64,000 bases of DNA from a virus. Positions 540-55,964 of the stretch are shown in pieces. Each line of letters begins with the position of its first letter. The stretch's first letter is position 1. The stretch is taken from the IMG/VR virus record IMGVR_UViG_3300050120_000230, positions 150,325-214,324 of that record; one strand, 5' to 3'. The notes under the pieces were generated by a model. The model worked only from the letters and a program-made list of their open reading frames with translations, was not told the DNA's origin and did no database searches. Made by a program: the position numbers and the translations under genes.

Positions 540-974
540 ATGGGCGCGCGCACCACCACCACCCTCGGCGATTTCGGCCGCAGCATCCGCAACGAACCGG
601 CCTACGGCATCTACAAGCATCGTTTCTATCTCGCGAAGGACACCGTCCCCGCCGCCGAAGTGGAAGCGTGGCTTCGCAAGGCATATGTCGAGGCCCGCTC
701 CGGCCGCCTCTATCGCGTCGTGAAGTATCGTCACGCGGACGGCAATCACTACGTCGATTACATCTGGATGCAGAAGTGCACGGACAACGACGAGATGTTC
801 ATCAAGATGAACTGGGGCTTCGAGAAGCACAAAATCGCTCGCGGCGAACGCGTCGCCCGCCGGAAGCTGACCAAGGAACAGAAGTCCGAACTGGACGAAC
901 TGATCGCCTACCACCGTCGTCGGTTCTACGAGATCAACGACGAGGCTCTCGCCGCGAAGGAAGCGCAAGCCTAA
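540..974 (+). CDS. hypothetical protein; carries an internal copy of the FK[LM]xW family motif (DEMFIKMNWG)
   Basis: ORF with AGGAGA Shine-Dalgarno 7 nt upstream of the ATG; non-repetitive composition; motif shared with the paralog family. Confidence 0.5.
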   Translation: MGARTTTTLGDFGRSIRNEPAYGIYKHRFYLAKDTVPAAEVEAWLRKAYVEARSGRLYRVVKYRHADGNHYVDYIWMQKCTDNDEMFIKMNWGFEKHKIARGERVARRKLTKEQKSELDELIAYHRRRFYEINDEALAAKEAQA

Positions 975-1396
975 TGCGGCTCCAATGGCAATTCAACGAC
1001 GGCTTGGGGTGGCGCGGTGGCGCCACCCTTGAGTCGGTCACCGTCGCGGAAGTGGCTGAAGCTGCCAAGGAAGCCCACTGGAGCCGGTGGCCGAACGATC
1101 ATCTCCGTGTCATGAAGGAAATCGCCCCGCAGCAGTATCGCATGGTGTGGTGGCAAGACGGCCATGCGGCCGAAGAAAGGATGTCCGATGCCGGTATCTG
1201 ATGTCAGGGAAGCGCAAGATCAGATCAAGGCCGTCGTGGCGAAGCTGAAGAAATCGGCCGACGATTTCGAACCAGTGACGCTCGAACCCAACGAGGCGAT
1301 GTGGGCGTTCCGCATCATCACCGAAGGGTTTCCGGGGCTCGCCCCGAAGTGATCCTGAACGATGATGCCAGCCCCGAGGAAAAGCAAGCGGTCCTG

Positions 1397-2092
1397 ATGG
1401 ACATGTTTGCTCCCGAGCCACTCAACGAGGAACTCGTGCCGTTCCTCGCGCAAGGGCGGCTGGGCCAAGGCATCTATCATCCGCTGATCCACGACCCATT
1501 TTACCAAGAGGCAATGAACAAGCGGATCAACGCGATGTTCAAGCACAAGACTGAAGCGGTGGCGAAAGCTATCGAAGAGGGACGCTGGGCCTCAATGCTG
1601 TTTCTGCATGAGCGCCCCTATCGTCTCGAAGCGTTGGAGGAAATCCTCTACACGCACGAGATCGACGATCCCGAGATCGTCTGGCCGCTGATCGCCAGCG
1701 TGTGGACCGACAGCGAGAACATCAATCAGAACTTGGATCAGTGGCTCGAAGTGTGGGATTCCTCGATCCCGCGCCGGTTCGAACTGGTCATGGACGAAGA
1801 AGAACGCGCGGCGCTCGCCGCTCTTCCCGAGACCTTCGAAATCTATCGCGGCATGGGCGCCGAAGAGGCCGCCGATGGGATGTCGTGGACGACCGACAAG
1901 GTCAAGGCGACATGGTTCGCCCATCGGTTCTCCGGGCTCACCGAGCACATGCCCTATCTGGCTACGGCGACCGTAGCCAAAGCCAATGTGCTGGCCCACT
2001 TCCTCGGCCGCAACGAAAGCGAGATCGTCGTGTTGCCGGAGAACGTGGAAGGTATGGTGGTCAAGCGCCTTCGCAAAAAGGTGCGAAAGTGA
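1397..2092 (+). CDS. hypothetical protein
   Basis: long ORF; start set at the first in-frame ATG after the upstream ORF stop; ends in a GTGA overlap with the next gene. Confidence 0.45.
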   Translation: MDMFAPEPLNEELVPFLAQGRLGQGIYHPLIHDPFYQEAMNKRINAMFKHKTEAVAKAIEEGRWASMLFLHERPYRLEALEEILYTHEIDDPEIVWPLIASVWTDSENINQNLDQWLEVWDSSIPRRFELVMDEEERAALAALPETFEIYRGMGAEEAADGMSWTTDKVKATWFAHRFSGLTEHMPYLATATVAKANVLAHFLGRNESEIVVLPENVEGMVVKRLRKKVRK

Positions 2093-2403
2093 GTTTCGAT
2101 GAAGCCCGCCGTTTCCGCGACCAGCCAAGCCCGTCCTTGGAATTTTCCGCCTTGGATGTTTACAAGCGACGTACCGAGATCACCGACAGCATCGACGTGT
2201 GGTTCACCGATACGGGCCAATGGCGCTATCTTGCCATGCAAAACGGGAAAATCAGTGACGAAGTGCGCGAGTGGTGTGAAGCCAATTTCAAATCAGCATT
2301 CACCTTCAGCAAAATGACTGTCGCGGCTATCACAGCCGAGAACCTGCATCTTCACGTCACCTCAGATACAGACGCGCTCAATTTCATCATGCGGTGGTTC
2401 TAG
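2089..2403 (+). CDS. paralog-family protein with conserved C-terminal W-x3-N-[LF]-K...DAxxFK[LM]x[WF] module
   Basis: GTG start overlapping the upstream stop (GTGA); C-terminus ...REWCEANFKSAF...DTDALNFIMRWF matches the family consensus. Confidence 0.55.
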   Translation: MSFDEARRFRDQPSPSLEFSALDVYKRRTEITDSIDVWFTDTGQWRYLAMQNGKISDEVREWCEANFKSAFTFSKMTVAAITAENLHLHVTSDTDALNFIMRWF

Positions 2404-3167
2404 ACGATGGCGTGAACGAGGCGTTTGACCTCGTCAGTGGCGTGCAGAGGAACGTGATTATAGATCATCTCCGGCGGACCATCGTCCTCGACGCGAACGA
2501 TCCCCACGATCCGGGTAGACCCGTCGAAACCGACGACGTTCGGAATGCGAACGGAGTGCCGTGATTTCAGTTCCGGGTGTTCCATTCGAGAGAAAATTCG
2601 GACGAGCTTTTCTTTGGTATCTCCCCAAGTGAACTCGGCTTCTCCATCGACACCGAGTTTCATTTCAAGCCACGCCTCTGCGGCTTCGTGGATCAAACCT
2701 TCGGGAAGGTCACCGTGTTGATCTCCTGCGAGTTCGGAGAAACCAACCGCCAACCGCTCGACATAGTTTTCGAAACTTTCGTCGCCCGGATACATGTCTT
2801 CGATCTCGGGACTACGAAGCTGATAGCCATCGGCTTGCAGCATGGACTTCAACACATGGTCGAAGATGATGTCGATGGTGTCCTCGTCCGGCAAGGCTTT
2901 CTTCATATCGACTTCGATGACGATCAGCAAATAGTCAGCGATCTCGTGCGCGTTGAGATAGTCTCGCAACTGGATGGCATACCGAGACGCGTAGACGCCC
3001 TCTAGGCTGGCCCAACGCATGTCATCGTAGTTGCCGCCATTATGGTTCGGCACGAGCCCGTGGGCTTGAATAGAAACCAGATTCGTCAGACGCGTGACAT
3101 GCAGGTAGAATGACCGAACGTCCGTCAACTGCCTCTCGACCAAATTAATCCATTCGCGCATTCCCAT
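2400..3167 (-). CDS. hypothetical protein
   Basis: ORF 2400..3266 trimmed to Met34 (MGMREW...), which lies immediately after an ATAAATATG late-promoter-like element; upstream portion looks non-coding. Confidence 0.5.
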   Translation of the reverse strand: MGMREWINLVERQLTDVRSFYLHVTRLTNLVSIQAHGLVPNHNGGNYDDMRWASLEGVYASRYAIQLRDYLNAHEIADYLLIVIEVDMKKALPDEDTIDIIFDHVLKSMLQADGYQLRSPEIEDMYPGDESFENYVERLAVGFSELAGDQHGDLPEGLIHEAAEAWLEMKLGVDGEAEFTWGDTKEKLVRIFSRMEHPELKSRHSVRIPNVVGFDGSTRIVGIVRVEDDGPPEMIYNHVPLHATDEVKRLVHAIV

Positions 3168-3207: not shown

Positions 3208-3786
3208 GTGCACCATCCTTTCACTCTCGCGTCGGTCAAGAAGGGCTCCCTCAAACTTGAGGGCACCGGGCGCGTGTTTCCTATGCAGCTTCTTCCGGTC
3301 TTTGCGTCGGCAGAAGAAGCTCATCAGTGCATGGGGTTCCATTTTTCCATGTGGCTCGAAGCCAACCCCGACGTGACGGACTATCGCTTGGCGTTGGATA
3401 TGGAAGTTTGCGACTCGCCAATTACCGTGCATCGTCAAGCGCCGGTGTGGATTTTCTTCGGGAAACTGAAAGACAAAAATGCGTTCCAAAGATGGATTGC
3501 ACGTTACAGGGAGTGGTTCGGCGGAAACGATATCGACCGCGCCTATTTTCCAGTATTGCCGATCAGCGGCCGTCACACACTGACTTTTCTGACTATTCCT
3601 TCTGGGATGAAACTCGATCCTAGAATGATGGACATGACTTTCCCTGATGGCAGCGTCGAACGTTGGGCGTGGGTATTGAGTAATTGTCGCAACCCAGTCT
3701 ATGTGACCCCTAACGGGCTTGCATTCACGTCTGCGAAAGAAGCTCTCCATTTCAAACTGCGATGGTCCGAGGCCCAAAATGTCTGA
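3208..3786 (+). CDS. paralog-family protein (C-terminal ...RWAWVLSNCRN...AKEALHFKLRW)
   Basis: family C-terminal module present; N-terminal start uncertain. Confidence 0.5.
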   Translation: MHHPFTLASVKKGSLKLEGTGRVFPMQLLPVFASAEEAHQCMGFHFSMWLEANPDVTDYRLALDMEVCDSPITVHRQAPVWIFFGKLKDKNAFQRWIARYREWFGGNDIDRAYFPVLPISGRHTLTFLTIPSGMKLDPRMMDMTFPDGSVERWAWVLSNCRNPVYVTPNGLAFTSAKEALHFKLRWSEAQNV

Positions 3787-4207
3787 GAAACCCAACGACC
3801 CATGGACTACGGCAAGTGGCTCACGCATCAAAGCGTGGTTTGTGATGCGTCTCGATCTGCCTATGTCGCAGGGCAAGTTCGGTATCCAAATTGGGCACGG
3901 CACCGATTTCATTCACATGGTCGGCGCCCAGAATCCATTCTACGAAACGTGGCTTGATCCGCACGGCGGAAACCGCCGTAAGATTGCCCTACGCGCCAAG
4001 ACTCTCGCCGATCTCGAAGTCGTAAAATCTGAATGCGACAAGGCTGGCATGATTACGAAGCTCATCATGGATGCGGGTCTGACCGAGTTCGGCCAACCGA
4101 CCATCACCGGATTGGTGATTCTCCCGCACGATGACGGCACAATCCCGAGCGTTTTGAAGCGGGCTCAAGCATGGCGGCCGACCGATGGCACAGCCCCGAC
4201 CAGCTAA
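3779..4207 (+). CDS. Pth2-type peptidyl-tRNA hydrolase
   Basis: KAWFVMRLDLPMSQGKFGIQIGHG... resembles the PTH2 core (RTDLxMgkGKiaAQcsHA); size about 140 aa; start overlaps the upstream stop. Confidence 0.55.
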   Translation: MSEKPNDPWTTASGSRIKAWFVMRLDLPMSQGKFGIQIGHGTDFIHMVGAQNPFYETWLDPHGGNRRKIALRAKTLADLEVVKSECDKAGMITKLIMDAGLTEFGQPTITGLVILPHDDGTIPSVLKRAQAWRPTDGTAPTS

Positions 4208-4628
4208 CGGACCTCGCGGCTATACCGGTCCACCCGGCTGCGTTGGTCCACCGGGTGTCACACGTCCGTATGGCACCCATGTGACTTCCTTGCCGGGAGT
4301 CTCTCCGTATTTGATGGCCCAATTCAGAGATCAATTTTACCACATGCAACATCGCAAGGGACGTAACGACAATCGAATTTGGCTGCTTGTCAAACTCTTA
4401 AAATGGACAAAGGTCGATCTGCCCATCGAAACCATCAGTCTGGCCGGAGGCCAACGTGATTCTTCTACAGACATGGGTCTGGTGTTTGCCAATTGTGACA
4501 GGGGTGTCCAGAACATTAAAGATTGGTGCGATAGCCAGTGCCGAAAGCCGTGGCGTTATGAACCGTCCGGCACATTTCTTTTTCGTTCAATGAACGATGC
4601 AGCCATTTTCAAACTTAGGTGGTTCTGA
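4185..4628 (+). CDS. paralog-family protein (C-terminal ...IKDWCDSQCRKPWRY...NDAAIFKLRWF)
   Basis: family module at C-terminus. Confidence 0.5.
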   Translation: MAQPRPANGPRGYTGPPGCVGPPGVTRPYGTHVTSLPGVSPYLMAQFRDQFYHMQHRKGRNDNRIWLLVKLLKWTKVDLPIETISLAGGQRDSSTDMGLVFANCDRGVQNIKDWCDSQCRKPWRYEPSGTFLFRSMNDAAIFKLRWF

Positions 4629-5144: not shown

Positions 5145-5358
5145 AAGAGTCTCTGACGTATTTGATCGCGAGTGGCCCTATCAAATCACGTTCTATACTC
5201 CCATTCTGTCGGACGGATCGCTCTATGAGATCAAGAAATGGTGTGTCGATAATCTCAAGGGCGATTGGAGCTATTTCAGTCGCGGCAGTTTTTTCGAGGT
5301 GTTCGTCTTTGATGACCACACCGACGTGATTTTCTTCAAAATGAATTTCGAATGTTGA
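5137..5358 (+). CDS. paralog-family protein (..IKKWCVDNLKGDWSYF...HTDVIFFKMNF)
   Basis: ORF 4906..5358 has a junk-like N-terminus; an in-frame GTG at 5137 overlapping the upstream stop gives a 74-aa family member. Confidence 0.4.
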   Translation: MVERVSDVFDREWPYQITFYTPILSDGSLYEIKKWCVDNLKGDWSYFSRGSFFEVFVFDDHTDVIFFKMNFEC

Positions 5359-5606
5359 CCCGCGTCGTTCACTGCAAACGAGAGCCCTACGATGTCTACA
5401 TCGGGCGGGGATCGAAATGGGGCAACCCGTTCGTAATCGGCAAGGACGGAGATCGGCCAACCGTGATCGCAAAATATTGCGACTATATCGCCCAACGTCC
5501 CGACTTGCTGGCAGATGTCCATGAACTTCGTGGTAAGGTCATCGGCTGTTGGTGTGCCCCACAAGCGTGCCATGGCGATGTGCTCGCGGAACTGGCGGAT
5601 TCATGA
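5352..5606 (+). CDS. DUF4326-like small protein (GNPF...CWCAPxxCHGD motif)
   Basis: VYIGRGSKWGNPF and CWCAPQACHGDVL motifs typical of DUF4326-type phage proteins. Confidence 0.5.
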   Translation: MLTRVVHCKREPYDVYIGRGSKWGNPFVIGKDGDRPTVIAKYCDYIAQRPDLLADVHELRGKVIGCWCAPQACHGDVLAELADS

Positions 5607-5878
5607 AAGTCTTTGTTTCGGATTCTATCATCAGAGATGGCCGCGATTTCTATGACTGGCTACGTCAGTCAAATTGGCGACTCGTGACTTCGCATTCCAA
5701 AACGGACGGGAAAGGCAAAGATGTCGGTGCGAGCGTCTACGAAACAGATGAACTTTCGGACGGCGAAATTCTTCTTTTGAAATTGCAGTGGCCCATCATT
5801 GGCGCGGTTGCGAATGATGGTTCGGTGCGATGGTCATCGGACGATTTCAGGTGGCTGGTAAAAGCTGGCTACGACTAA
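5603..5878 (+). CDS. paralog-family protein (..FYDWLRQSNWRL...DGEILLLKLQWPI) with C-terminal extension
   Basis: ATGA overlap with upstream stop; family motif internal. Confidence 0.4.
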   Translation: MKVFVSDSIIRDGRDFYDWLRQSNWRLVTSHSKTDGKGKDVGASVYETDELSDGEILLLKLQWPIIGAVANDGSVRWSSDDFRWLVKAGYD

Positions 5879-7673: not shown

Positions 7674-8467
7674 TACACTACCACACTTTCACTCAGTTCG
7701 CGTGCACGCTCCCCGAGCTAAACCTAGATTGCGTGAACCTCTCAACGATAGAGCGGAAGGATCAGGCCGCTTCATTGCTTCCACGGCCCATACGATCCAA
7801 TCACCACGCAACCAAACCTTCGTGCCCATTCGGGCGAAATCTCCAACCACGCCCTCGCTCTAAGCGAACGACAACGGATCGGCGAGGTGTCATCGCTGTC
7901 TAGCCCACGATGGTCCCCTTCGGATCGCTCACGCTATATTTCAAGACGCAGCGCCGCAACTTTTTGCCCATTCAGGCGAATTGGTGGAGGGACTTCCCTC
8001 TCCAACGAAGCGGCTCGCGCGGGGCCATCTCCAAAGTCGGAGTGTGAAGTTGGGCCTACCCCCTAAGCAATGGCATTTCGGCCACTCAGGTTTATCCCAC
8101 TTTTCCAGCCTAGTCTCGGGTCTAGAAATCCCTACCTTCAGCTTCTCTCGACACTGAGGGCCAGACACTTCCTCCTGAACCCTCGCGAGGGTTAGAGAAT
8201 CTGCGCTGACACTTTTAGCTCGGAATGCTCACGCAATCCCGCCTCAGTAATTCGTGTTGCCTTCCCGAGATCAGAACGCTGGTAAACCGCCGGGCCAAAC
8301 CCTTTGGCTCTTCCAAGGACTTCTGGTTAGCTAATGCCGAACCAGCGCCCCGTTCTCAAGAACAACCTCAATCTACACCGCCCCCGAGAACGGTCAAGCA
8401 ATTTCTTTTGGTTGACCAAAAATCTTTTCGTGGGAGTATTCAATCTATAGTCAGCCGGGAGAACCAT

Positions 8468-8938
8468 GTGCAATACGAGACCCACATCTTCAGCAAGAAT
8501 GAGCCGTGGGCCACCGAATGGCACATCCTCTACTTGACAGCCGCCGACGCGGAGAAGGTGTTTCTCAGCACAAATGAATCCGTGAAAGGCTACCGTCGCA
8601 ACGGTGGCGAATGGGCGCGCGCCAGTCATGATAGCTATCGCTATCTCAGGCGTGAAGTTGATGAATGGGTCCGTGCCAATGCCGGACCCCAAGAAGGTGA
8701 AGTGTGGGAATGCGACCGCTACTACCACGCGGACGAGCCTCTCCCAGCATTGCCGCAACGCGCCGGTCGCCGAGCATGGCTGGATGCCTTCAAATGCTGG
8801 CCAGAAGTCTACGGAAACTACCATCATCACCAGTGGGCGGCCGGATCGCACCTCGACACCGAAAAGAAAGGGATCAGAGCTTTCATTCGGTTCAGAAGCG
8901 AGACGACCGCTGTGCTGTTCAGGACGCTGTTCCTGTAA
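8468..8938 (+). CDS. paralog-family protein (...HQWAAGSHLD...IRAFIRFRSETTAVLFRTLFL)
   Basis: ORF 8225..8938 trimmed to in-frame GTG preceded by GGGAGA; upstream part lies in the structured region. Confidence 0.45.
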   Translation: MQYETHIFSKNEPWATEWHILYLTAADAEKVFLSTNESVKGYRRNGGEWARASHDSYRYLRREVDEWVRANAGPQEGEVWECDRYYHADEPLPALPQRAGRRAWLDAFKCWPEVYGNYHHHQWAAGSHLDTEKKGIRAFIRFRSETTAVLFRTLFL

Positions 8939-8940: not shown

Positions 8941-9014
8941 TGGCAGGGGTGGAGAGAATCGAACTCTCGTCTTGGGTTTTGGAGACCCCTACTCTACCAT
9001 TGAGCTACACCCCT
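8941..9014 (-). tRNA. tRNA-Trp (anticodon CCA)
   Basis: manual cloverleaf: AGGGGTG/CACCCCT acceptor, loop CTCCAAA, T-arm GAGAG-TTCGATT-CTCTC, CCA encoded; A1-U72. Confidence 0.75.
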
Positions 9015-9094
9015 ATTAGATAACTTGGGATACCACCGGTTGCAAATCAGGATATATACGTAATACTTACGTATTTCCGGGGGCTATCACGACA

Positions 9095-9364
9095 ATGACT
9101 ACTCCATCTACGATCAACGGCGCCACTGTGACTATTGTCAGGATTGGCAAATCTCTCGTTTCCTTGCAGTCACAAAATCTCGTCACACAACCCGCAAGCG
9201 CCGGGCAGATGTCCTTCCAGATCAATTGCGATTCGAAGCTGCTGATCGCGAACTCGAAGATCACGATTTTCTCTTCGACGTTCGGTGCGAAGATCGACAA
9301 CGTCACCGTCCTCGCCGATCATTTCGGCGCGGGTAGTCACCAGATCACTGGCCACGTCATCTGA
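9095..9364 (+). CDS. small hypothetical protein
   Basis: 89-aa ORF between tRNA genes; weak RBS. Confidence 0.3.
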   Translation: MTTPSTINGATVTIVRIGKSLVSLQSQNLVTQPASAGQMSFQINCDSKLLIANSKITIFSSTFGAKIDNVTVLADHFGAGSHQITGHVI

Positions 9365-9368
9365 ATTG

Positions 9369-9458
9369 AGAATCAGGTGGGACTCGAACCCACGGGGACA
9401 AGCTTCGCTTGTTACGGGGGTAAAAACCCCGCCCTCTCGCCGCTGAGGTGACTGATCC
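9369..9458 (-). tRNA. atypical long tRNA-like gene (90 nt, long variable hairpin ACAAGC-GAA-GCTTGT, anticodon loop TTTTTAC reading TTT); identity uncertain
   Basis: acceptor GGATCAG/CTGATTC, T-arm GTGGG-TTCGAGT-CCCAC, anticodon stem CGGGG/CCCCG; three nt between acceptor and D stem. Confidence 0.45.
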
Positions 9459-9498
9459 ATTTATTGAACATTCGTAGAGATATCAATACTATTGGTTA

Positions 9499-10092
9499 AT
9501 GTTTTGTGAATTTTGTTCTGACTTGATTTCTTCTCGATATGGTTCTGGTCGTTTTTGTTCTTCCAAAAGTGCCAGAGGTTTCAGCACCAAAGCTAGGCGC
9601 GCAGAGATCAATTCCAAGGTCAGCAAGAAATTATCGAATAGACCGTCTGGTCGAACGCTCGATTGCGTGACCATTTCTTTTCTGGCTGACAAACGACGTG
9701 AAAAACTCATGGAACTGCCATGGGAATCAATTGGCCTATACGCCAAAAAATCTCGCGTTCTGGGTGAACAAAATCACCGGTGCAATGGATGCAACCTTGA
9801 TGAATGGCGGGGCCAGCCGTTGGTTTTGGAAATCGAACATAAAGATGGCAATAACCAAAACAACGCCCGAGAAAATCTCGAAGGCTTGTGTCCGAATTGC
9901 CATAGCCAAACGCCAACATGGCGTGGTCGTAACAAGGGTCGATCTAAATCAATCTCAGATCAAGAATTCATCGAACATCTGCAAGCTGCTAGCAGCATTC
10001 ATCGCGCGCTGTTGAGCTTAGGTCTCTCAGCGAAGGGAACGAATTATAACCGTGCGAGAACTCTCATCCAATCACATGGCATTTCTATGTGA
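9499..10092 (+). CDS. HNH endonuclease
   Basis: HNH signature ...CNGCNLDEW...EIEHKDGNNQNNARENLEGLCPNCH; stop abuts tRNA-Lys. Confidence 0.65.
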   Translation: MFCEFCSDLISSRYGSGRFCSSKSARGFSTKARRAEINSKVSKKLSNRPSGRTLDCVTISFLADKRREKLMELPWESIGLYAKKSRVLGEQNHRCNGCNLDEWRGQPLVLEIEHKDGNNQNNARENLEGLCPNCHSQTPTWRGRNKGRSKSISDQEFIEHLQAASSIHRALLSLGLSAKGTNYNRARTLIQSHGISM

Positions 10093-10168
10093 TGGTGAAC
10101 CCCCTCGGATTTGAACCGAGAATCTCCTCCTTAAAAGGGAGTTGCATTAACCGTTATGCTAGGGGTCC
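10093..10168 (-). tRNA. tRNA-Lys (anticodon TTT)
   Basis: GGACCCC acceptor, D GCAT/ATGC, loop CTTTTAA, T-arm CTCGG-TTCAAAT-CCGAG, CCA encoded. Confidence 0.75.
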
Positions 10169-10354
10169 GTTAGAAAGTAGCATTCAGAGGTGAATTCATC
10201 TCGGGATATTCTGTCGCGAGAACAGACCCTTCATATGTTCCCCAGCCAACGAAAGCCAGAACTAAAGCAATGATTGTGGTGCCGAGCGCGATTTTGAATG
10301 TCTTTTGCATAGCAACAATTTATCTCTCTGAGATGTTGCGATGCAATATATTTG

Positions 10355-10438
10355 AGGGCGCGGTGGGACTCGAACCCACGGTGTGCTTACGCAAAAAGAT
10401 TAAGAGTCTTCCCCCTTCGCCGCTCGGGACACGCGCCC
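10355..10438 (-). tRNA. atypical class-II-like tRNA (84 nt; Tyr/Ser-like D-loop GAGCGGCGAA, 15-nt variable arm) whose anticodon loop reads CTCTTAA (CTT); identity uncertain
   Basis: acceptor GGGCGCG/CGCGCCC, T-arm GTGGG-TTCGAGT-CCCAC; anticodon stem AAGA/TCTT. Confidence 0.45.
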
Positions 10439-10442
10439 ATGT

Positions 10443-10517
10443 TGGTGGATCGGGAGAGATTCGAACTCTCGACCTTGGGCTTAAGAGGCCCCTGCACTAC
10501 CGCTGTGCTACCAATCC
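10443..10517 (-). tRNA. tRNA-Lys (anticodon CTT)
   Basis: GGATTGG acceptor, loop CTCTTAA, T-arm GAGAG-TTCGAAT-CTCTC, CCA encoded. Confidence 0.7.
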
Positions 10518-10521
10518 ATTG

Positions 10522-10609
10522 TAGTCCTGCTTGGATTCGAACCAAGATCACGCCCCGATCTGGGACTACGGATTATAAATCCGACGCTCTGCCGTTGAGC
10601 TACAGGACC
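10522..10609 (-). tRNA. atypical long tRNA (88 nt, about 21-nt variable region) with anticodon loop TTTATAA (TAT); Ile-UAU-like or other, uncertain
   Basis: GGTCCTG acceptor, D GCTC-AACGGCA-GAGC, T-arm CTTGG-TTCGAAT-CCAAG. Confidence 0.45.
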
Positions 10610-10667
10610 AAAGGGTCTGCTGTAGCAGCGATATTCGTTTACTCATTTGGTCCTCCTCTTTTTGCTG

Positions 10668-10751
10668 TGCGCTCGGCTGGGCTCGAACCAGCAAGACCTT
10701 CCGGCCGCTCCGTTTTAAGTGGAGTGTGGCTACCAGTTTCACCACGAGCGC
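10668..10751 (-). tRNA. tRNA-Leu (anticodon TAA)
   Basis: class II: 3-bp D stem, loop CTTAAAA, 15-nt variable arm, T-arm GCTGG-TTCGAGC-CCAGC. Confidence 0.7.
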
Positions 10752-10756
10752 ATGAT

Positions 10757-10838
10757 TGGTGCCCCTCCTCGGATTCGAACCGAGATGCTTTCGCGCCAGA
10801 TTTTGAATCTGGTGTGTCTACCGTTCCACCAGAGGGGC
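10757..10838 (-). tRNA. tRNA-Leu (anticodon CAA)
   Basis: loop TTCAAAA, stem CCAGA/TCTGG, 11-nt variable arm (GCGAAAGC), CCA encoded. Confidence 0.75.
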
Positions 10839-10881
10839 ATAGAAACCTGAAGATCACATGGCGTGAACCTCAAGTCCATAT

Positions 10882-10963
10882 TGGTGCGGATGGAGGGAAT
10901 CGAACCCCCACGCTTTCGCAACAGATTCTAAATCTGCCGTGGCTACCGTTACACCACATCCGC
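10882..10963 (-). tRNA. tRNA-Leu (anticodon TAG)
   Basis: loop TTTAGAA, variable TGCGAAAGCGT, T-arm GGGGG-TTCGATT-CCCTC, CCA. Confidence 0.75.
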
Positions 10964-10971
10964 ATTGTAGT

Positions 10972-11058
10972 TGGTGCGAATAGCAGGACTCGAACCTGCA
11001 CGGCCTTTCGGCCACTGACTTCTGAAGCCAGCGCGTCTACCTATTCCGCCATACTCGC
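10972..11058 (-). tRNA. tRNA-Leu (anticodon CAG)
   Basis: D GCGG-AATAGGTAGA-CGCG as in bacterial Leu, loop TTCAGAA, 15-nt variable arm, CCA. Confidence 0.8.
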
Positions 11059-11066
11059 ATTGTATT

Positions 11067-11148
11067 TGGTGCCCAGAACAGGACTCGAACCTGCACGCCG
11101 AAGCAACATCCTCTCAGAATGCCGTGTCTACCGTTTCACCATCTGGGC
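11067..11148 (-). tRNA. tRNA-Leu (anticodon GAG)
   Basis: loop CTGAGAG, variable TGCTTCGGCGT, CCA. Confidence 0.75.
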
Positions 11149-11156
11149 ATTGTAGT

Positions 11157-11232
11157 TGGCACAACCGACTGGGCTCGAACCAGTGGCCTCATCCTTCGGA
11201 GGGATGCGCTCTTCCAACTGAGCTACGGCTGT
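11157..11232 (-). tRNA. tRNA-Arg (anticodon CCG)
   Basis: loop CTCCGAA, stem CATCC/GGATG, A1-U72, CCA. Confidence 0.7.
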
Positions 11233-11244
11233 AAATGATGTGCT

Positions 11245-11321
11245 TGGCAGAGACGACAGGGATCGAACCTGTGACCTCCTGATTCGTAGTCAGGCGCTCG
11301 TTCCGGCTGAGCTACGCCTCT
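11245..11321 (-). tRNA. tRNA-Arg (anticodon ACG)
   Basis: loop CTACGAA, stem CCTGA/TCAGG, T-arm ACAGG-TTCGATC-CCTGT, CCA. Confidence 0.75.
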
Positions 11322-11346
11322 GCAAAGCACATCATCGAAGTGTGTT

Positions 11347-11422
11347 TGGCTGGAACGGAGGGGATCGAACCCACGACCTTCAATTCCGCAAACTGACGCT
11401 CTTCCAACTGAGCTACGTCCCA
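11347..11422 (-). tRNA. tRNA-Arg (anticodon GCG)
   Basis: loop TTGCGGA, stem TCAGT/ATTGA, CCA; T-stem has one U-U mismatch. Confidence 0.65.
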
Positions 11423-11847: not shown

Positions 11848-12267
11848 TTATCTGATGGCGGCTTCCTTGCCGCCCATTTTGGTGTAGAGCCGCTCGGCCG
11901 TCGCCAAGCTCTCGCGTCGGCTGATGGGCTGATAAGCCCAGTTGCCTTTGTGGTCTTTACTGAACACAACGTAGTAGGGCGACGGCTTTCCATTCCGAGA
12001 CACATTTTCGGCGCGAGCCAGCGCATATCGCCCATCGCTCTTGAGAATAGTCCAGCTTGGGGTCGATTGCATCGTGCTTTCGACGAGGTTCATTAGGTCA
12101 CGCATTCTCATGACGGTATTTAGCGGCTGACCGATCATGACCACACGATCTTGAACAGCAGGCGATCTTCGTCTCGGCTGAAGCAGAAATAGGTCATCCA
12201 AATCGAATGTGATCCGATCAGAGGTGAATCTCTTTTTTTCCGGCGAGTGCAAGAGAAGGCGGCCCAA
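11848..12267 (-). CDS. hypothetical protein
   Basis: 139-aa ORF with protein-like composition. Confidence 0.4.
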   Translation of the reverse strand: MGRLLLHSPEKKRFTSDRITFDLDDLFLLQPRRRSPAVQDRVVMIGQPLNTVMRMRDLMNLVESTMQSTPSWTILKSDGRYALARAENVSRNGKPSPYYVVFSKDHKGNWAYQPISRRESLATAERLYTKMGGKEAAIR

Positions 12268-12590
12268 GGCCCGAAGGCCATCGTCGCCAACATGGGCATT
12301 TCATCCAAAAACCGTTCGTTTTGGAACGTCGGCGTGGCCCATCGATAGTTGAGTTTGTTGTCCCGCACGCATTCAAGCGCCGTTCTGAGATGAATGGGCG
12401 AAGAGTGTGAAACTTCGTAGTCGGTTCTGTTTTTCGCGTGCAGATCGATGTAACCGGAGGGGATCATGGAGAACTCTTGCTCTCCCCCGAAAGATTGTTG
12501 AACGACGCGCACCCAATTTCGTTTCCGCTTCATGAGGTGGGGTAGGCTTTGAGCAGTTCCTCGAACATGTAGCCGAAGCACGAATCCCAC
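12135..12590 (-). CDS. paralog-family protein (C-terminal ...SRDEDRLLFKIVWS); start uncertain
   Basis: family motif at C-terminus; overlaps neighbouring ORF so true start probably internal. Confidence 0.35.
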   Translation of the reverse strand: MGFVLRLHVRGTAQSLPHLMKRKRNWVRVVQQSFGGEQEFSMIPSGYIDLHAKNRTDYEVSHSSPIHLRTALECVRDNKLNYRWATPTFQNERFLDEMPMLATMAFGPWAAFSCTRRKKRDSPLIGSHSIWMTYFCFSRDEDRLLFKIVWS

Positions 12591-16567: not shown

Positions 16568-16642
16568 AGTCTCTTAGCTCAGCGGTAGAGCAGCGTCTTG
16601 ATAAGGCGAAGGTCACTGGTTCAATCCCAGTAGGGACTACCA
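16568..16642 (+). tRNA. tRNA-Ile (anticodon GAT)
   Basis: loop TTGATAA, T-arm ACTGG-TTCAATC-CCAGT, CCA; A1-U72. Confidence 0.75.
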
Positions 16643-16657
16643 AATCGCAGGACTTAC

Positions 16658-16732
16658 GGGCGAATAACTCAGCGGTAGAGTGCCTCTTTCACACGGAGGA
16701 AGCCGGGGGTTCGATCCCCTCTTCGCCCACCA
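16658..16732 (+). tRNA. tRNA-Val (anticodon CAC)
   Basis: GGGCGAA acceptor, loop TTCACAC, T-arm GGGGG-TTCGATC-CCCTC, CCA. Confidence 0.7.
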
Positions 16733-16836
16733 CTACTCGATGAGTGACGTAGCTCATCAAGGTCTTTGACATCGTTGATAGCGTGAAATAACGGCCGCTC
16801 CCGTGATCGGGGGCGGCCGACTAAGAAGAGTTTTGC

Positions 16837-19155: not shown

Positions 19156-19158
19156 TTT

Positions 19159-28346: not shown

Positions 28347-28634
28347 TCAACGAAAATGGTCCCACTTCATGCGGAATAGCATCTCGGCGCCGGGGTTCGG
28401 AAATTCCAACTCGACCTTTGTCGGCCGCGTCATCCAGCCGCCTTTGTTTCCCCAGCCGTTATGCGACCGTGCTTTCTTTTCATGATAGCTAATTTTGGTG
28501 CCAGCGATATTGTTCTGCATCCATTTTGCGAACTCGGGTTCGAAATACGGATGGTTGATGCACTGCCATGTAGAAGGTGCTTGGAAAAATCTCTCATCGT
28601 AGAAATCGGAAAGGAAAAGCGTCAATGGTGCCAT
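28347..28634 (-). CDS. paralog-family protein (...FAKWMQNNIAGTKISY...GAEMLFRMKWDHFR)
   Basis: family module near C-terminus. Confidence 0.5.
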   Translation of the reverse strand: MAPLTLFLSDFYDERFFQAPSTWQCINHPYFEPEFAKWMQNNIAGTKISYHEKKARSHNGWGNKGGWMTRPTKVELEFPNPGAEMLFRMKWDHFR

Positions 28635-43676: not shown

Positions 43677-44272
43677 TGCGCGTTACGACCGACATCGACA
43701 TCGATTTTGCCGACCGCGATATGGCGCTGGTTGGTCTGATGCATGTCGCCGCCAGCATGGAGCAGAAAGGTCAGCTTTCTCGTCACCCGACTGGGGTCTA
43801 CTTCCAGAACATCCCCACCGATCCGATCACGGGCTACTCGTCATTCAACTACGAGCAGGCGGCCGACAACGGCTATTTCAAGATCGACTTCCTCAACAAC
43901 TCGATCTACGGCGACGTGCGCGACGAAGAGCACCTCATTGCGTTGATGGCCGATCCCGACTGGGAAATGTTGGAGGTCGAAGAGATCGTGTCGATGCTCG
44001 CACACATCCACAACAGTTTCGGGTTGGTGAGCCAAATCCGACCCAAGAGCGTTGACGATCTGGCCGTTATCCTCGCGCTGATGCGGCCGGGCAAACGCCA
44101 CCTGATGAGTCGTTCACGCGAAGAAATCGCCGCCGAAATCTGGAAGACCGGACAAGATGGTTTCGTCTTCAAGCGTGCCCACGCGATTGCATATGCGGTT
44201 AGCATTGTCGTGCAACTCAATTTGCTTTGCGAAAAAACCGCCGCAGCAATCGATGAGGCTGCTGGCCAATGA
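43676..44272 (+). CDS. hypothetical protein
   Basis: 198-aa ORF. Confidence 0.45.
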   Translation: MRVTTDIDIDFADRDMALVGLMHVAASMEQKGQLSRHPTGVYFQNIPTDPITGYSSFNYEQAADNGYFKIDFLNNSIYGDVRDEEHLIALMADPDWEMLEVEEIVSMLAHIHNSFGLVSQIRPKSVDDLAVILALMRPGKRHLMSRSREEIAAEIWKTGQDGFVFKRAHAIAYAVSIVVQLNLLCEKTAAAIDEAAGQ

Positions 44273-44631
44273 ACACTTGCTACGTCGAGAATACCACTAG
44301 ACGCCCGATGACACTCTGTTATGACGTGATGAAGGGATGGCATCACCTCTACACAATGGAGATGATGAAACTCCAAAGTGGTGAACTCACACTCAACGCG
44401 GGGCGCTTTGCTTCGTTCGTCAGAGATGAGCAACCGCACACTGTCACTTTGCGCGTGGATGGCAATGGCGATCAAATGCAACGCCGTCTCGCGGAACTCA
44501 TCACATGGATCGCGGGCCAGCCGGGACTATGGTCTTTCACGTTGAACGCCGAAAGTGTCGGCCGCACGTCGATCACGTTTAGCTTCAATCACGTCACGAC
44601 CGCCGTGACGTTCAAACTGGTCTGGTTTTGA
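44269..44631 (+). CDS. paralog-family protein (...LITWIAGQPGLWSF...TTAVTFKLVWF)
   Basis: family module at C-terminus. Confidence 0.5.
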   Translation: MNTCYVENTTRRPMTLCYDVMKGWHHLYTMEMMKLQSGELTLNAGRFASFVRDEQPHTVTLRVDGNGDQMQRRLAELITWIAGQPGLWSFTLNAESVGRTSITFSFNHVTTAVTFKLVWF

Positions 44632-45350
44632 TGGGCAAAGTCATTCTCGTCCCCGCGATGTCGCGATTTGAAATCCCTGTCCCGGCCAATGGTGGCCAGT
44701 TCACCGGAATGTCGCACGTCTATCCAGTTCAGATGAACATGACATCGGGCTACAACGACGTGGTCGCTGGCGTGCAGTCGCATGTTCTGGCAGCGTCGGT
44801 GACGATTCAAGACCCGAAGACTGAATACCACTACCATGATCCAATGCTCAGCTATGCTGCGTTCTACAGCTTTTCAGGGTCTTCGGGCGGCACCAACATA
44901 ACCAGTCGAGCACTCGGCGGCGCCTCGCCGCTGATTCACCGGGTTGATGCGACCATGGTCCCGCGCATGTTCTGGGATCACACCGAAATTGAAGACATCG
45001 TCCACGAACGGTTCCATGGTCATTTGCTGGTTCAAATCAACAACCAGTCATCCGATTACCGTGAGCCATCGACTTGGAATTTCTGTGCGGCCGATGGTCG
45101 AGATAACGCGGCCTTGTCTGATATGTTGACCCGCCGCAAATCGAACAAGCTGGAATCGCACAAGGGACTGAGAACTGAGGTCGCCGCGTGGCTTCGAGCT
45201 AATGCGACCGACTACGATCTCTTCGATGCGGCCCATTTCGCCGAGCCGAATGACGAGGTTTACATTCGCAACGCGACCGAAGCGATCCACTTCAAAATGA
45301 AGTGGCACAAACAAGAGCCGGACCCCGAGGAAATCGAGGTTCCGTTCTAG
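44628..45350 (+). CDS. paralog-family protein (...VAAWLRANATDYDLF...ATEAIHFKMKW) with short C-terminal tail
   Basis: 240-aa ORF. Confidence 0.5.
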   Translation: MMGKVILVPAMSRFEIPVPANGGQFTGMSHVYPVQMNMTSGYNDVVAGVQSHVLAASVTIQDPKTEYHYHDPMLSYAAFYSFSGSSGGTNITSRALGGASPLIHRVDATMVPRMFWDHTEIEDIVHERFHGHLLVQINNQSSDYREPSTWNFCAADGRDNAALSDMLTRRKSNKLESHKGLRTEVAAWLRANATDYDLFDAAHFAEPNDEVYIRNATEAIHFKMKWHKQEPDPEEIEVPF

Positions 45351-45664: not shown

Positions 45665-46204
45665 GTGATCGACTACGAAGACGGCATGGACGACGATGAT
45701 GTGCGGCAGGCCGAAGACGAACGCCTCCGAGTCATGCGCGCAAGGCAAGCCGAGGTGGATTTCTGCGAGACCCTCTGTGGGATCGCCCCGTCAGAAGTCA
45801 TGGGCCTGTTGGCCAAGATGATGCGGCAGGAGTTCTATCTCTTCCGCACGTCCACCGGCGGCAAGCGGGTTCGCAAATGGAAAGGCGAGCTTCTCGGCAT
45901 CAACGTCGAAGTGACCGAGGTGGATACCGGCAGTATGCCCCTCATGGGCTTTGATAACCGCATGTCGTCCGTGGACTACCACGTCGAAAACGTCGAGTGG
46001 GAGTTTCGAGTTTGCGTGGGCGGCTCCGACAGCTATGTTCGTGACGACGTTCCGCAAGGCAACGCGAAACTGGGTAAGCATCGCGTCAAGGTATCCTATC
46101 CGTGGTTCGAGGGCGATGAAGACACCTATCGCAGCGACATGTCGTTGATCCGACTCATGGGTCTGAACAACGATGACGAGGATTCGAAGGAAGTCATGAT
46201 TTGA
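45665..46204 (+). CDS. hypothetical protein
   Basis: 179-aa ORF. Confidence 0.45.
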   Translation: MIDYEDGMDDDDVRQAEDERLRVMRARQAEVDFCETLCGIAPSEVMGLLAKMMRQEFYLFRTSTGGKRVRKWKGELLGINVEVTEVDTGSMPLMGFDNRMSSVDYHVENVEWEFRVCVGGSDSYVRDDVPQGNAKLGKHRVKVSYPWFEGDEDTYRSDMSLIRLMGLNNDDEDSKEVMI

Positions 46205-46449
46205 AGCCGACTAAGCCGCTTCCGACACACGCAGTTCGCCTGAATCCAATCGACCACGGTTATGCTCTCCGATCCGTTGCCGCAAGCTGGCGAGGCGTTC
46301 GGTATGACATTCGACCGGAAATCAGAACTTGGATGAGGGCCAATTTCAAGCACTTCCGCTACGACCGCGTTCATCGACGGTATGGCGAAGTCATCATCCG
46401 TTTCGATGACCCCAGAGACGCGGTGCTGTTCAAGCTCTTCATGTCCTAA
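46201..46449 (+). CDS. paralog-family protein (...IRTWMRANFKHFRY...RDAVLFKLFMS)
   Basis: 82-aa minimal family member. Confidence 0.55.
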   Translation: MKPTKPLPTHAVRLNPIDHGYALRSVAASWRGVRYDIRPEIRTWMRANFKHFRYDRVHRRYGEVIIRFDDPRDAVLFKLFMS

Positions 46450-51196: not shown

Positions 51197-51766
51197 ATGA
51201 AGGCCATTTCCAAAGCCATCAAACGCGTTGAGGTAAAGGCCACCATCGAACGCAAGTATGAGGTGGTTCTCACGAACAGCGAGAACCAGACCATTTGCGC
51301 GCTGCTGACCAATTCGCTCCGCGAGGCCCTCACCGAGGCAGCGGAGTGGGCCGACTTCTGTGGCATCGTTCTAACGCCGTATCGCGTCATGGGTAAGATC
51401 GTAGAGCCGGTCACCAAGGACACCTACAAGCAAACCACGCTCAAGACGTTCGCGCAGCTTCATGCGGAATATCGGACGAGCGGTGGCGAACTGAATTGGA
51501 ACAAGCTGATGCATTGGGAGTGGCAACGCTTCCGGGGCACCTACAAGGACAAGGAAGCCATGAAGTTGTGGCTCCTGCCGCATTTCATGGAGAGCAAGCC
51601 GCCGACGTTTGATGAGGCGGTGGCCCGTGCAGGGACCAAAGACTCCCCGGCCGTCGAATGGCTGAGCGCCAACGCCACGGGCTCGTGGATGCCTTCCAAG
51701 GGCGGCTATCGGTTCTCCGATGATCGAGATGCCGCTCTGTTCAAACTGTTTTTCGCTGGAAACTAG
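51197..51766 (+). CDS. paralog-family protein (...AVEWLSANATGSWMP...DDRDAALFKLFFAGN)
   Basis: 189-aa ORF. Confidence 0.5.
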   Translation: MKAISKAIKRVEVKATIERKYEVVLTNSENQTICALLTNSLREALTEAAEWADFCGIVLTPYRVMGKIVEPVTKDTYKQTTLKTFAQLHAEYRTSGGELNWNKLMHWEWQRFRGTYKDKEAMKLWLLPHFMESKPPTFDEAVARAGTKDSPAVEWLSANATGSWMPSKGGYRFSDDRDAALFKLFFAGN

Positions 51767-52587: not shown

Positions 52588-52883
52588 CCAGATATCGATT
52601 GAACATCGAAAGCGTAGCTCGTGTCGGCGGCTTCGTTGCGATGCTGTCTGTGTTTTTTATTTTGATGGGAACAACACCGGAAGATAGTGTGCCGCCGTGG
52701 TGGGCCATCGCTCCCATGATCGTGTTGTTTTTGATGAGCGTCATCTATCTCTCTGGCGGCAACGCAGGCATGAAGTATTTCGGAGACTGCCTCGCCAAGT
52801 TCTTCCTCATCAAGATCGAACCCGCCGATGAGATTTCCGAGATCGACGAGGATCGCTGCAAGGGCCGAGAGGTTCCAGATTGA
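52584..52883 (+). CDS. small membrane protein
   Basis: two TM helices. Confidence 0.4.
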   Translation: MTRYRLNIESVARVGGFVAMLSVFFILMGTTPEDSVPPWWAIAPMIVLFLMSVIYLSGGNAGMKYFGDCLAKFFLIKIEPADEISEIDEDRCKGREVPD

Positions 52884-53188
52884 AGCTCTTCCTCGACGAT
52901 GAACGGTTTCCTCCGAACGATGGTGCGTTCTGGATCATCGTCAGAGACGTGGGCGAAGCCGTGACGTTGATGGAGCAGACCGGCTGTCCGGGTTTCCTGT
53001 CGTTCGATCATGATCTCGGGAAGAACGTCCCCACGGGTTATGATCTGGCTCACTGGATGGTTGAGCGAGACATGGACCAAGATGGCAAGTTCATCCCCGC
53101 CAATTTTGAATACTACGTTCACAGTCAAAACCCACCGGGGGCCGCGAACATCAAGGCTTTGCTCGACAATTACTTGAAACAGCGGTAA
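52880..53188 (+). CDS. hypothetical protein with receiver-like acidic pocket (LFLDDER...SFDHDLG)
   Basis: 102-aa ORF. Confidence 0.4.
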   Translation: MKLFLDDERFPPNDGAFWIIVRDVGEAVTLMEQTGCPGFLSFDHDLGKNVPTGYDLAHWMVERDMDQDGKFIPANFEYYVHSQNPPGAANIKALLDNYLKQR

Positions 53189-54184: not shown

Positions 54185-54433
54185 TCAGGGCGGATAATCC
54201 ACCCAGAACCCCAGTTTGAACATCACGCCGTGTTCCGCTTCCGTGAAGAACATGAACGTGTTGTTCCATTCGGCATCATAGCCACTGTGATCCGCCCAAC
54301 GCAGAGCGCGCCCAATTTCTTCGGTAGTCGCCCTTCGACAGAGTATGTCGAAAAATGCGACGCGAAACGGATACTTCTCCGCGAACTCGCCCGTCGCTTC
54401 AGCCGTCCAAGAGACTTTGTAGGACGGAATCAC
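54185..54433 (-). CDS. paralog-family protein (...ALRWADHSGYDAEWNNTFMFF...HGVMFKLGFW)
   Basis: ORF 54185..54571 trimmed to GTG overlapping the upstream stop (GTGA). Confidence 0.45.
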   Translation of the reverse strand: MIPSYKVSWTAEATGEFAEKYPFRVAFFDILCRRATTEEIGRALRWADHSGYDAEWNNTFMFFTEAEHGVMFKLGFWVDYPP

Positions 54434-54861
54434 GCGGCCAGTTCCAACAGATCGTCTTTCAGATCGTTCATGAACTGGTTGGCCAACCGCACGGCATGAT
54501 CGGAGTTGGCTTTCACGCCATCCGCCCAAACCTGCTGAAGCTTCGCATCGGTGAACACCTCGTCGGCACACGATGCATGTAGCGCGTCTCGGCGTTTCTG
54601 AATGATCGCGACGGCCTGCCGCACGTCGCTCATCGTAAACTGGCTGGTGGCGATTTTGCCGAACAGTTTTGCTTCCAAAGCGGCCGGGCCAAGTTCATCT
54701 CGGCGGCGAGACTGCGCTTCGTGCTTGGCGCCATGGCGATTACCTCCCACGAGGTTCCACGCGTTCGACAGGTGGCTCAGGCGAGCCCGGTCGGAACTGG
54801 ACAAGGTGATGACGGTTTCGATCTTCATGGCGGCCTCCTTCATTTCCAGTATACCCCACAT
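54430..54861 (-). CDS. hypothetical protein
   Basis: 143-aa helical ORF. Confidence 0.45.
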   Translation of the reverse strand: MWGILEMKEAAMKIETVITLSSSDRARLSHLSNAWNLVGGNRHGAKHEAQSRRRDELGPAALEAKLFGKIATSQFTMSDVRQAVAIIQKRRDALHASCADEVFTDAKLQQVWADGVKANSDHAVRLANQFMNDLKDDLLELAA

Positions 54862-54879
54862 TCTGGAAATGATGACCGC

Positions 54880-55212
54880 CTAGTAGGATTTTAATTTCGG
54901 AGGGTTTTCCATACCGGGCCAATGTGTCGGCTCCGGCATGGACTCGTCACTGAAGAACAGCCTGAACATCGCGCGGTCACGTTCGTCTCTAAAGGAGAAC
55001 GATCCGTAGCGATTGCTCCACACCATATGGCTCTTCAAGTTGCGGTCGCACCAGTCGAGCATCTCGTTCATTTTCACGCGACTGTAGGGCTGAGCCATCG
55101 ACATCTTGTCCGTCGATGTCCAATATTCACAGGCCGGATAGAGACCGAACTCAAGCGAACCTTTGCGCTGCTGAAGTTCGTTGATCGGTTCGAGATACCA
55201 GAACTTGGCCAT
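54880..55212 (-). CDS. paralog-family protein (...MLDWCDRNLKSHMVW...DERDRAMFRLFFS)
   Basis: 110-aa ORF. Confidence 0.5.
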   Translation of the reverse strand: MAKFWYLEPINELQQRKGSLEFGLYPACEYWTSTDKMSMAQPYSRVKMNEMLDWCDRNLKSHMVWSNRYGSFSFRDERDRAMFRLFFSDESMPEPTHWPGMENPPKLKSY

Positions 55213-55964
55213 CAGGCTGCTTCCGGCTGTCTGAAGTCGAACGTCAGCCTGAACTCGACCATGTCGGTCAGGTTCTCGAACATGAAGCGATACGGTTGTT
55301 TCGCCTTGGAGTCCTCAATCTCGTCTTCATCGGGAAGCCAGACGGTCCACCGCCCGCCGTGACGGGTCCTGCCCCAAATATCGCGCGCGACTTGCCCGGC
55401 CGTGGCATGGCCGACCAAGAATACGGCGGTGTGGAACTCGACACCCGCCTTGATGGCGTCCTTGAGATGATCTTCAGGGATGAAGCCCGAATGTGGGTCC
55501 GTCCAGAACGGCGTCTTGAAGTCGTTGAAAACTGGCGGCAGGCCGCTGTTGAAACGTATGATCCGAACAGTCTGCAAGCGGTTCCTCGTGCGTTTCTTCA
55601 AATCCACCATCGGATCATGCCCTTTGGCGATCAACGCTTTGTCTATCTGCCGGTCGCGAGAGATGTCATTGAACATACCGAACGCACTGTCGCGCATGGT
55701 CTTTTCCAAGACCATCGTCTTGATGTATCTCTTGATCTCCTGCTTTTGAGCATGGAGATTGTTGATGCCGGGCGAGCGCCCGTATTCCATCAGTTCCGCG
55801 ATCTCACGACCGCGAGTAGCCTTGCCTCTATACCATTCGAGGATTTCTTTGCGGTAAGGCATTAGGGGAACATCGAGACGGAAATGCCGTTCGCGGTCGC
55901 GATGTCCGCAGCATCTTTGAATTCGATTTTCTGCGACCAATACTCCCCACGATTGAACGACCAC
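55212..55964 (-). CDS. paralog-family-related protein (...LTDMVEFRLTFDF)
   Basis: 250-aa ORF. Confidence 0.45.
   Translation of the reverse strand: MVVQSWGVLVAENRIQRCCGHRDRERHFRLDVPLMPYRKEILEWYRGKATRGREIAELMEYGRSPGINNLHAQKQEIKRYIKTMVLEKTMRDSAFGMFNDISRDRQIDKALIAKGHDPMVDLKKRTRNRLQTVRIIRFNSGLPPVFNDFKTPFWTDPHSGFIPEDHLKDAIKAGVEFHTAVFLVGHATAGQVARDIWGRTRHGGRWTVWLPDEDEIEDSKAKQPYRFMFENLTDMVEFRLTFDFRQPEAA

Follow-up and report, generated by a model that had tools for sequence, protein, structure and literature searches.

A 64,000-nucleotide stretch of the IMG/VR virus record IMGVR_UViG_3300050120_000230 (positions 150,325 to 214,324; here called the window) comes from the 415,409-bp genome of a huge uncultured phage and encodes 15 firm and 3 probable members of a family of proteins that share a module of about 45 amino acids (aa) at or near the C-terminus. 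We have little doubt that the domain family represented by these open reading frames (ORFs) is real, widespread and virus-restricted, and it has no name as yet. The module had been described in a first-pass annotation of the window as a portable C-terminal domain present in at least 22 copies. Its homology proved to lie far beyond chance in leave-one-out, external-profile and decoy comparisons, but the number of copies had to be reduced.

Copy number, identity and distribution

In the translations of the ORFs listed by the annotation, the motif can be seen directly. We used 13 obvious copies as seeds for hidden Markov models (HMMs), left each out in turn and searched the models against the 932 six-frame ORFs of the window. 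All 13 seeds were recovered when left out (E values of 5e-12 to 0.02), the non-seed ORF 8219-8938 was always the next match after them, and iteration of the profile brought in ORF 12135-12590 and a second, internal copy in ORF 23460-24053. Profiles trained only on sequences from outside the window (other metagenomes or IMG/VR) detected 15 window ORFs with 16 domain copies at statistically significant E values of 3.8e-15 to 2.5e-3. Three further ORFs were borderline, with the motif at or near the C-terminus of each and scores of 10.5 to 11.3 bits (E 0.02 to 0.035); all three scored above every decoy, the ceiling for reversed and shuffled window ORFs being 8.2 bits. These probable divergent members, all on the minus strand, are 28347..28634 (11.3 bits, E 0.02), 54185..54433 (10.5 bits, E 0.035) and 55212..55964 (250 aa; E 0.012 to 0.06, depending on the profile). 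No match to the family profiles at E<1 was obtained for ORFs 5603-5878, 17325-17657 and 540-974, in the last of which an internal copy had been reported. Our count of 15 firm and 3 probable members follows from the external-profile scores, the decoy ceiling and these three listed ORFs without a match. In all-versus-all BLASTP comparisons of the window members, similarity was limited to the last ~45 residues, in agreement with the earlier description of the N-terminal heads as mutually dissimilar.

The family had no match in Pfam, PHROGs, NCBIfam, PADLOC or PDB sequences, and no well-characterised domain was recovered with the HMM in Pfam or PHROGs. For PHROGs, NCBIfam and PADLOC, membership was judged by hmmscan at E<=0.01, and only stray matches, each in one member, were seen (phrog_22424, E 0.005; PADLOC E1-E2, E 0.003). 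The Pfam models for RRM, KH and ACT matched no member even at E<=1. Membership in the RRM family, marked by a Pfam match, RNP1/RNP2 aromatics on the exposed sheet face and a fourth strand after helix 2, was considered and rejected, as was membership in the ACT family, marked by a Pfam match and the order strand-helix-strand-strand-helix-strand with a ligand turn after strand 1. Pfam searches with the long heads, with two subfamilies carrying conserved inserts and with the longest matches revealed no fused known domain; a Foldseek comparison with BFVD matched only uncharacterised proteins from uncultured phages; and no earlier description of the motif or the family came to light in full-text literature searches on the motif and on phage multigene families. 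The closest parallel of this type is a lineage-specific expansion in a jumbo phage, the zinc ribbon present in ~35 copies in Bacillus phage G (Iyer et al. 2021, PMC7824862). There, as here, one small domain has been amplified to tens of copies in a large phage genome, and its function has also been proposed by inference only. Unlike the zinc ribbon, the present family has a different fold without metal ligands and is not lineage-specific, as it occurs in many phage lineages, with orthologous subfamilies and mostly in tight tandem arrays.

Word-indexed protein searches returned almost only window proteins and suggested a family private to this genome, a view overturned by an exhaustive HMM search of 1.84 billion cluster representatives, in which 861 proteins, mostly of 55 to 120 aa, matched at E<=1e-3. 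Five of the best 150 (P0015, P0023, P0037, P0119, and P0126) were false positives, namely long repeat proteins (ankyrin, cadherin-like, and others) that enter through many partial matches to the first helix, and the count of 861 is therefore slightly inflated. The 140 best non-window proteins with the domain had a median length of 87 aa, and 11 of them contained two domain copies. The domain ended at most 3 residues from the C-terminus in 110 of 151 copies, whereas 41 (27%) were not terminal. As most members outside the window stand alone and consist of little more than the domain, the long heads found in the window are N-terminal extensions of a small-protein family.

IMG/VR and 185,579 cellular genomes were screened with a degenerate DNA pattern for [DE]DAxxFKLRW. 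True members were present in 47 of the 49 stretches matched in IMG/VR; altogether 222 members were found in 48 loci, with a single strand for all members in 46 of them. The median stop-to-stop spacing within the arrays was 319 bp. The largest array comprised 20 copies in 8.4 kb (locus L021), followed by arrays of 13, 12, and 10 copies at other loci. Carrier contigs were 4 to 465 kb long, and the GC content of the fetched loci was between 31 and 61%. Genes adjoining the members, read by eye, resembled T4-type replication genes, and one DNA polymerase shared 41-48% identity with the polymerases of the Phosso, Atu_ph07 and GAP32 group. In the cellular genomes the pattern matched 23 stretches with about 5 true members, mostly on contigs of metagenome-assembled genomes or on small high-coverage contigs. 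The family is thus essentially viral and rare in cellular genomes. One subfamily carries an 'RFNSGDPMxTVxI' insert between the W-helix and the last strand (loci L019, L033, L050, and L004), and another combines an 'NE[IL]GGGDYxF' insert with a conserved head of ~80 aa, 'YDPDY..RA...YYHGY' (L013, L031, and L033); neither had a Pfam match.

Among 50,697 GenBank phages, there was no near match to the window DNA, and tblastn with three single members detected nothing. When a 2,132-aa concatenate of 44 diverse domains was used as the tblastn query, the PA5oct group and Phosso were found. Members identified by HMM (E 1e-8 to 4e-12) were gp209, gp210 (YP_010679004.1), and gp237 of the Pseudomonas jumbo phage PA5oct and at least eight proteins encoded within 5 kb by genes 133-145 of the Sinorhizobium jumbo phage Phosso (PV764938.1), all of them annotated as 'hypothetical protein'. 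They have in common with the window members the domain itself, its C-terminal position, the small protein size, the clustering of the genes and the T4-related jumbo phage background. PA5oct has only ~3 copies in the 90 kb examined, unlike the window, and the PA5oct and Phosso proteins, so far uncharacterised and unnamed, do not have the long N-terminal extensions of several window members. The neighbourhood was similar in the two loci L052 (PA5oct 161689-201793) and L054 (Phosso 84621-108918), with MazG-like, DnaE/Pol III fragment, GroES-like, and PhoH-like genes.

In other metagenomes, individual window paralogues have counterparts that are orthologous over the full length (P0011/P0030, P0005/P0090, and P0004/P0089), and for 135 of 187 array members the best match was located in another contig and not in the member's own array. 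By these comparisons the paralogues are old and individually maintained, and the full-length orthologues indicate purifying selection on each copy.

Sequence profile and predicted fold

The family can be recognised with a 43-position profile. Its first half reads E(68%)-[IVM]-x-x-W(99%)-[CL]-x-[ED]-N(53%)-h-x-G and is followed by a variable stretch, and its second half reads [FIV]-x-F(80%)-x4-D(66%)-A(66%)-h-h-F(92%)-K(53%)-L(79%)-R(54%)-W(90%). There was no positional conservation upstream of W-4, and the emission profile showed no constraint at position 29, which separates the two core residues of the last strand. The loop between the last two strands varied from a few to ~50 aa. The net charge of the domain differed among paralogues, with isoelectric points (pI) of 4.4-10.9, a mean net charge of -1.15, and a pI below 6 in half of the small members.

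Structure prediction, which the first-pass annotation had proposed as a check, gave a folded domain. For P0001 (26498-26725), AlphaFold2 returned a compact domain with a predicted local distance difference test (pLDDT) score of 81. For P0009 (22173-22427), an alignment of 88 sequences yielded a pLDDT of 88.5 and a predicted template modelling (pTM) score of 0.76, with pLDDT values of 95-97 over the helices. The elements of P0009 were strands 2-5, 13-18, and 21-29, helix 31-40, strands 45-52 and 62-70, and helix 73-83, which gives the predicted order strand-strand-strand-helix-strand-strand-helix with a final-helix pLDDT of 92-97. Both models agreed in the order of elements: one to three strands come first, then helix 1 (W..N), a further two strands, and finally the C-terminal helix (DA..FKLRW). 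In these models, the ~45-aa module runs from helix 1 through two strands to the C-terminal helix and lies within a compact two-layer alpha/beta domain of ~60-80 aa; conservation falls on the two helices and the last two strands, and the sheet is predicted to be completed by one to three poorly conserved strands directly upstream of the module. The compactness of the predicted domain thus speaks for a folded unit and not for a linear tag. Of the earlier notion of a portable C-terminal domain on unrelated heads, the restriction of homology to the last ~45 residues stands, while the tag-like appendage gives way to a compact folded domain. Conserved positions appear to be mainly hydrophobic core or likely helix-capping residues. 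Among the closest known systems are ferredoxin-like small alpha/beta domains (ACT, RRM, and KH) and secretion-chaperone or YbjN-like folds. The type III secretion chaperone/YbjN-like fold has the order helix-strand-strand-strand-helix-strand-strand-helix, is dimeric and binds extended polypeptides.

Candidate roles of the family

The reading we favour, at somewhat less than even confidence, joins the family identity to a scaffold of paralogue-specific binding surfaces that serves as a host-takeover or anti-defence repertoire. What varies among paralogues is the N-terminal extensions, the sequence of the strands near the N-terminus, the residue flanked by the core positions of the final strand, the loop that joins the last two strands, and the net charge; the domain would be a constant scaffold on which each paralogue presents a binding surface of its own. 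It is the combination of conserved hydrophobic and helix-cap positions with these variable parts that points to such a scaffold. The proteins would be non-virion, intracellular and accessory, each binding a different host (or phage) macromolecule, and the repertoire would grow by tandem duplication, to which this huge phage may have added N-terminal extensions and one gene fusion.

The location of the genes and the virion data of PA5oct bear on this proposal. The window members are situated between gp32/RecA and DnaB modules, alongside 31 tRNA genes. The 10 kb flanking each window end contain gp32-, RecA-, and DnaB-like replication genes and, on either side, 0 family members; the family therefore forms an accessory island of ~54 kb bordered by replication genes. 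In PA5oct, gp209, gp210, and gp237 are without the electrospray ionisation tandem mass spectrometry (ESI-MS/MS) note borne by 93 virion proteins (PMC7318152), so that the virion-proteomics check suggested earlier was negative for all three, and family members are probably located outside the virion. The accessory, replication-side location and the absence from the PA5oct virion proteome argue for intracellular accessory proteins, and on these grounds we favour binders acting in takeover or anti-defence. The annotation's own suggestion of an interaction domain or a diversifying effector/anti-defence family is thereby retained as the best reading.

Several points weigh against the binding-scaffold proposal. 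The first 50 kb of PA5oct, including the early terminal-repeat region, contained 0 members, and the position of the PA5oct members outside that region does not match a takeover role of the classic immediate-early kind. The binding function is inferred from conservation patterns only, and the assignment of core positions is derived from sequence periodicity and residue type, not from measured burial. A pure scaffold model also leaves the strongly conserved K and R of the last helix unexplained. T4-late (TATAAATA) and sigma-70-like motifs were also counted in the arrays; the few matches allowed no inference on timing.

A broader version, in which a phage-wide, amplifiable 'binder scaffold' has each paralogue neutralise a different host defence or housekeeping protein, seems to us rather unlikely. 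If it were true, arrays of up to 20 copies would represent a germline-encoded counter-defence repertoire shared and exchanged among unrelated phages, and a new, very large anti-defence/host-takeover superfamily would be hidden among 'hypothetical proteins'. Should each paralogue have a target of its own, the arrays would amount to a compact catalogue of what large phages must neutralise. Large eukaryotic DNA viruses carry multigene host-range and immune-evasion families, which are alike in being virus-restricted and tandemly amplified, in combining a conserved core with variable surfaces, and in their accessory regions; their folds and hosts are unrelated to those of the present family, and the likeness is an analogy only. 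Nothing in phage genomes is less well understood than the small accessory proteins, which have been the source of many anti-defence and host-takeover factors. The present family is recognised by a single short profile, has hundreds of representatives, is almost confined to viruses and has repeatedly been amplified into arrays; a single experimental characterisation, which could be carried out in the cultured phages PA5oct or Phosso, would therefore extend an annotation to hundreds of cluster representatives and probably to many more proteins.

Two alternatives are improbable. In the first, the proteins would be nucleic-acid-binding regulators with a truncated RRM/KH/ACT-like fold of the ferredoxin type, the paralogues binding different RNAs (mRNAs or tRNAs) or DNA sites; T4 RegA offers a comparison for an RNA-binding regulator. 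Such a role would accommodate the conserved K and R of the last helix, the stretch 'F-x-F-E-D-E-E-D-A', which resembles the RRM strand-3/helix-2 junction, and the wealth of translation genes in the window (31 tRNA genes, a phenylalanyl-tRNA synthetase (PheRS)-like ORF, and PTH2). However, the RRM, KH, and ACT models of Pfam matched no member even at E<=1, the mean net charge of the domain is negative (-1.15) with half of the small members below pI 6, the last-strand position at which an RRM has its exposed RNP1 aromatic is unconstrained, and the fetched loci of most carriers are without a tRNA-rich context. For the amplified zinc ribbons of phage G, too, such a role has been put forward (PMC7824862).

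In the second alternative, to which we assign an equally small probability, the domain would be an oligomerisation or adaptor module whose conserved helices bring the paralogues together as homo- or heterodimers or dock them on a common phage or host machine, such as phage Clp, FtsH, or GroES, while the variable parts choose the clients. Conserved hydrophobic residues (F39, L41, W43, h37, and h38) occupy more than one face of the last helix, as would be the case for a helix with one face packed against a structure beyond the domain, and tandem two-domain proteins (11 of 140, and one fusion in the window) would also suit such a module. The PA5oct members lie among nucleotide-metabolism genes and ClpX-, ClpS-, ClpA-, FtsH-, DnaJ-, and GroES-like genes, and the Phosso members adjoin MazG, GroES, AAA-ATPase, and PhoH genes. 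This neighbourhood evidence, however, comes from two genomes and from 40-kb regions with many unrelated genes, and no such proteostasis genes were found near the members in the IMG/VR carriers or in the window.

That the arrays are selfish or neutral filler, small genes multiplied by tandem duplication without a specific function or as a mobile cassette, is highly improbable. The tandem arrangement, the location in hyperplastic regions and a GC content at third codon positions (GC3) slightly below that of neighbouring genes (0.635 vs 0.697) would be in line with it, but core positions are kept at 80-99% across phages of 31-61% GC, individual paralogues have full-length orthologues in other phages, pointing to purifying selection per copy, and Pfam scans associated no nuclease or recombinase domain with the members. 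We give hardly any credence to the C-terminal targeting, packaging or degradation tag of the annotation, which would route diverse cargo to capsid or protease or be cleaved off: the C-terminal position of 110 of 151 copies and the dissimilar window heads are what such a tag would show, but the predicted domain is well packed up to its final helix (pLDDT 92-97), most members (55-90 aa) are without any cargo, 27% of the copies are internal or have more than 3 residues after them, and the PA5oct members were not detected in virions. Known phage capsid-targeting signals, e.g., those of T4 internal proteins, are short N-terminal peptides.

Individual members and other features of the window

The firm members differ mainly in what precedes and follows the domain. 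On the plus strand, 2089..2403 (P0003 in the Joint Genome Institute (JGI) gene call, 104 aa) has its domain at 2260-2397 (external profile E 7.6e-9, leave-one-out E 5e-7). ORF 3208..3786 (192 aa) carries a long N-terminal extension with no Pfam or PHROG match, followed by the domain at 3658-3765 and 5 more residues (E 8.7e-7, leave-one-out E 1e-5). P0004 (4314..4628, domain 4512-4622, E 2.3e-13) is 104 aa long by the JGI call, which starts at 4314; the start at 4185 given earlier is that of the longest ORF. Collagen-like content in 4185-4628 was considered, but this part precedes the JGI start and is unlikely to be translated. P0004 has full-length orthologues in other metagenomes (P0089, P0044, P0007, and P0019). 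P0002 (5137..5358, 73 aa) is nearly the domain alone (5227-5349, E 6e-10).

Two of the firm members are divergent. In 8468..8938 (+, 156 aa, E 1.3e-4 to 2.5e-3 depending on the profile), an insertion of ~60 aa separates the W-helix (EVDEWVRAN) from the last strand and helix, the domain end lying at 8771-8926. In 12135..12590 (-, 151 aa, E 4.5e-4 and 6.9e-4 with two external profiles), the good match is limited to the last strand and helix (YFCFSRDEDRLLFKIVWS).

Four members follow on the minus strand between 22 and 27 kb. P0009 (22173..22427, 84 aa, domain 22179-22331, E 9.8e-12) and P0001 (26498..26725, 75 aa, domain 26504-26626, E 6.4e-11) are the two with predicted structures. P0008 (23460..24053, 197 aa, E 3.8e-15) contains two domain copies, at 23802-23921 and 23466-23606. 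Its halves match separate small proteins of other metagenomes, P0018 and P0097 (93 and 82 aa), which suggests a gene fusion. P0006 (24050..24391, 113 aa, domain 24056-24235, E 5.5e-6) has a long loop between the last two strands.

The remaining plus-strand members are 44269..44631 (120 aa, domain 44494-44625, E 1.1e-4 and 5e-6 with two external profiles), P0011 (44631..45350, given as 44628-45350 in the first-pass annotation), 46201..46449 (82 aa, domain 46318-46440, E 3.9e-12, orthologue P0017), and 51197..51766 (189 aa with a long head, domain 51650-51754, E 3.7e-8). P0011 (239 aa) has a large head, its domain at 45177-45305 followed by 13 residues (E 1.8e-7), and a full-length orthologue, P0030 (E 2.5e-57). 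P0005 (54880..55212, 110 aa) is encoded on the minus strand; its domain at 54952-55065 is followed by 22 residues (E 1.9e-10), and its orthologues are P0090, P0056, and P0122. The GC3 of the window members was 0.635 vs 0.697 for the other 80 called genes, and the members scored poorly in a crude codon-usage gene caller. Window proteins recur on Logan contigs of run SRR35930614.

Besides the family, the window encodes 31 tRNA genes, a PheRS-alpha-like ORF, a helicase, and a collagen-repeat protein. The tRNA genes form two arrays, at 8941-11422 (-) and 16568-21841 (+). Several tRNAs are oversized, among them tRNA-Lys at 9368-9458 (91 nt) and tRNA-Ile(tat) at 10521-10609 (89 nt), and their length suggests introns or unusual arms. 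The PheRS-alpha-like ORF (20486-21616, +; PF01409, E 1e-34) is flanked by two tRNA-Phe(gaa) genes at 20241-20315 and 21767-21841. An ORF at ~3779-4207 (+; L079 13240-13668), located directly between two family members, matches the peptidyl-tRNA hydrolase family PTH2 of Pfam. The collagen triple-helix repeat protein is encoded at 13876-14967 (+; PF01391, E 2.5e-12), and a small ORF at 52880-53188 (+) matches cREC_REC.

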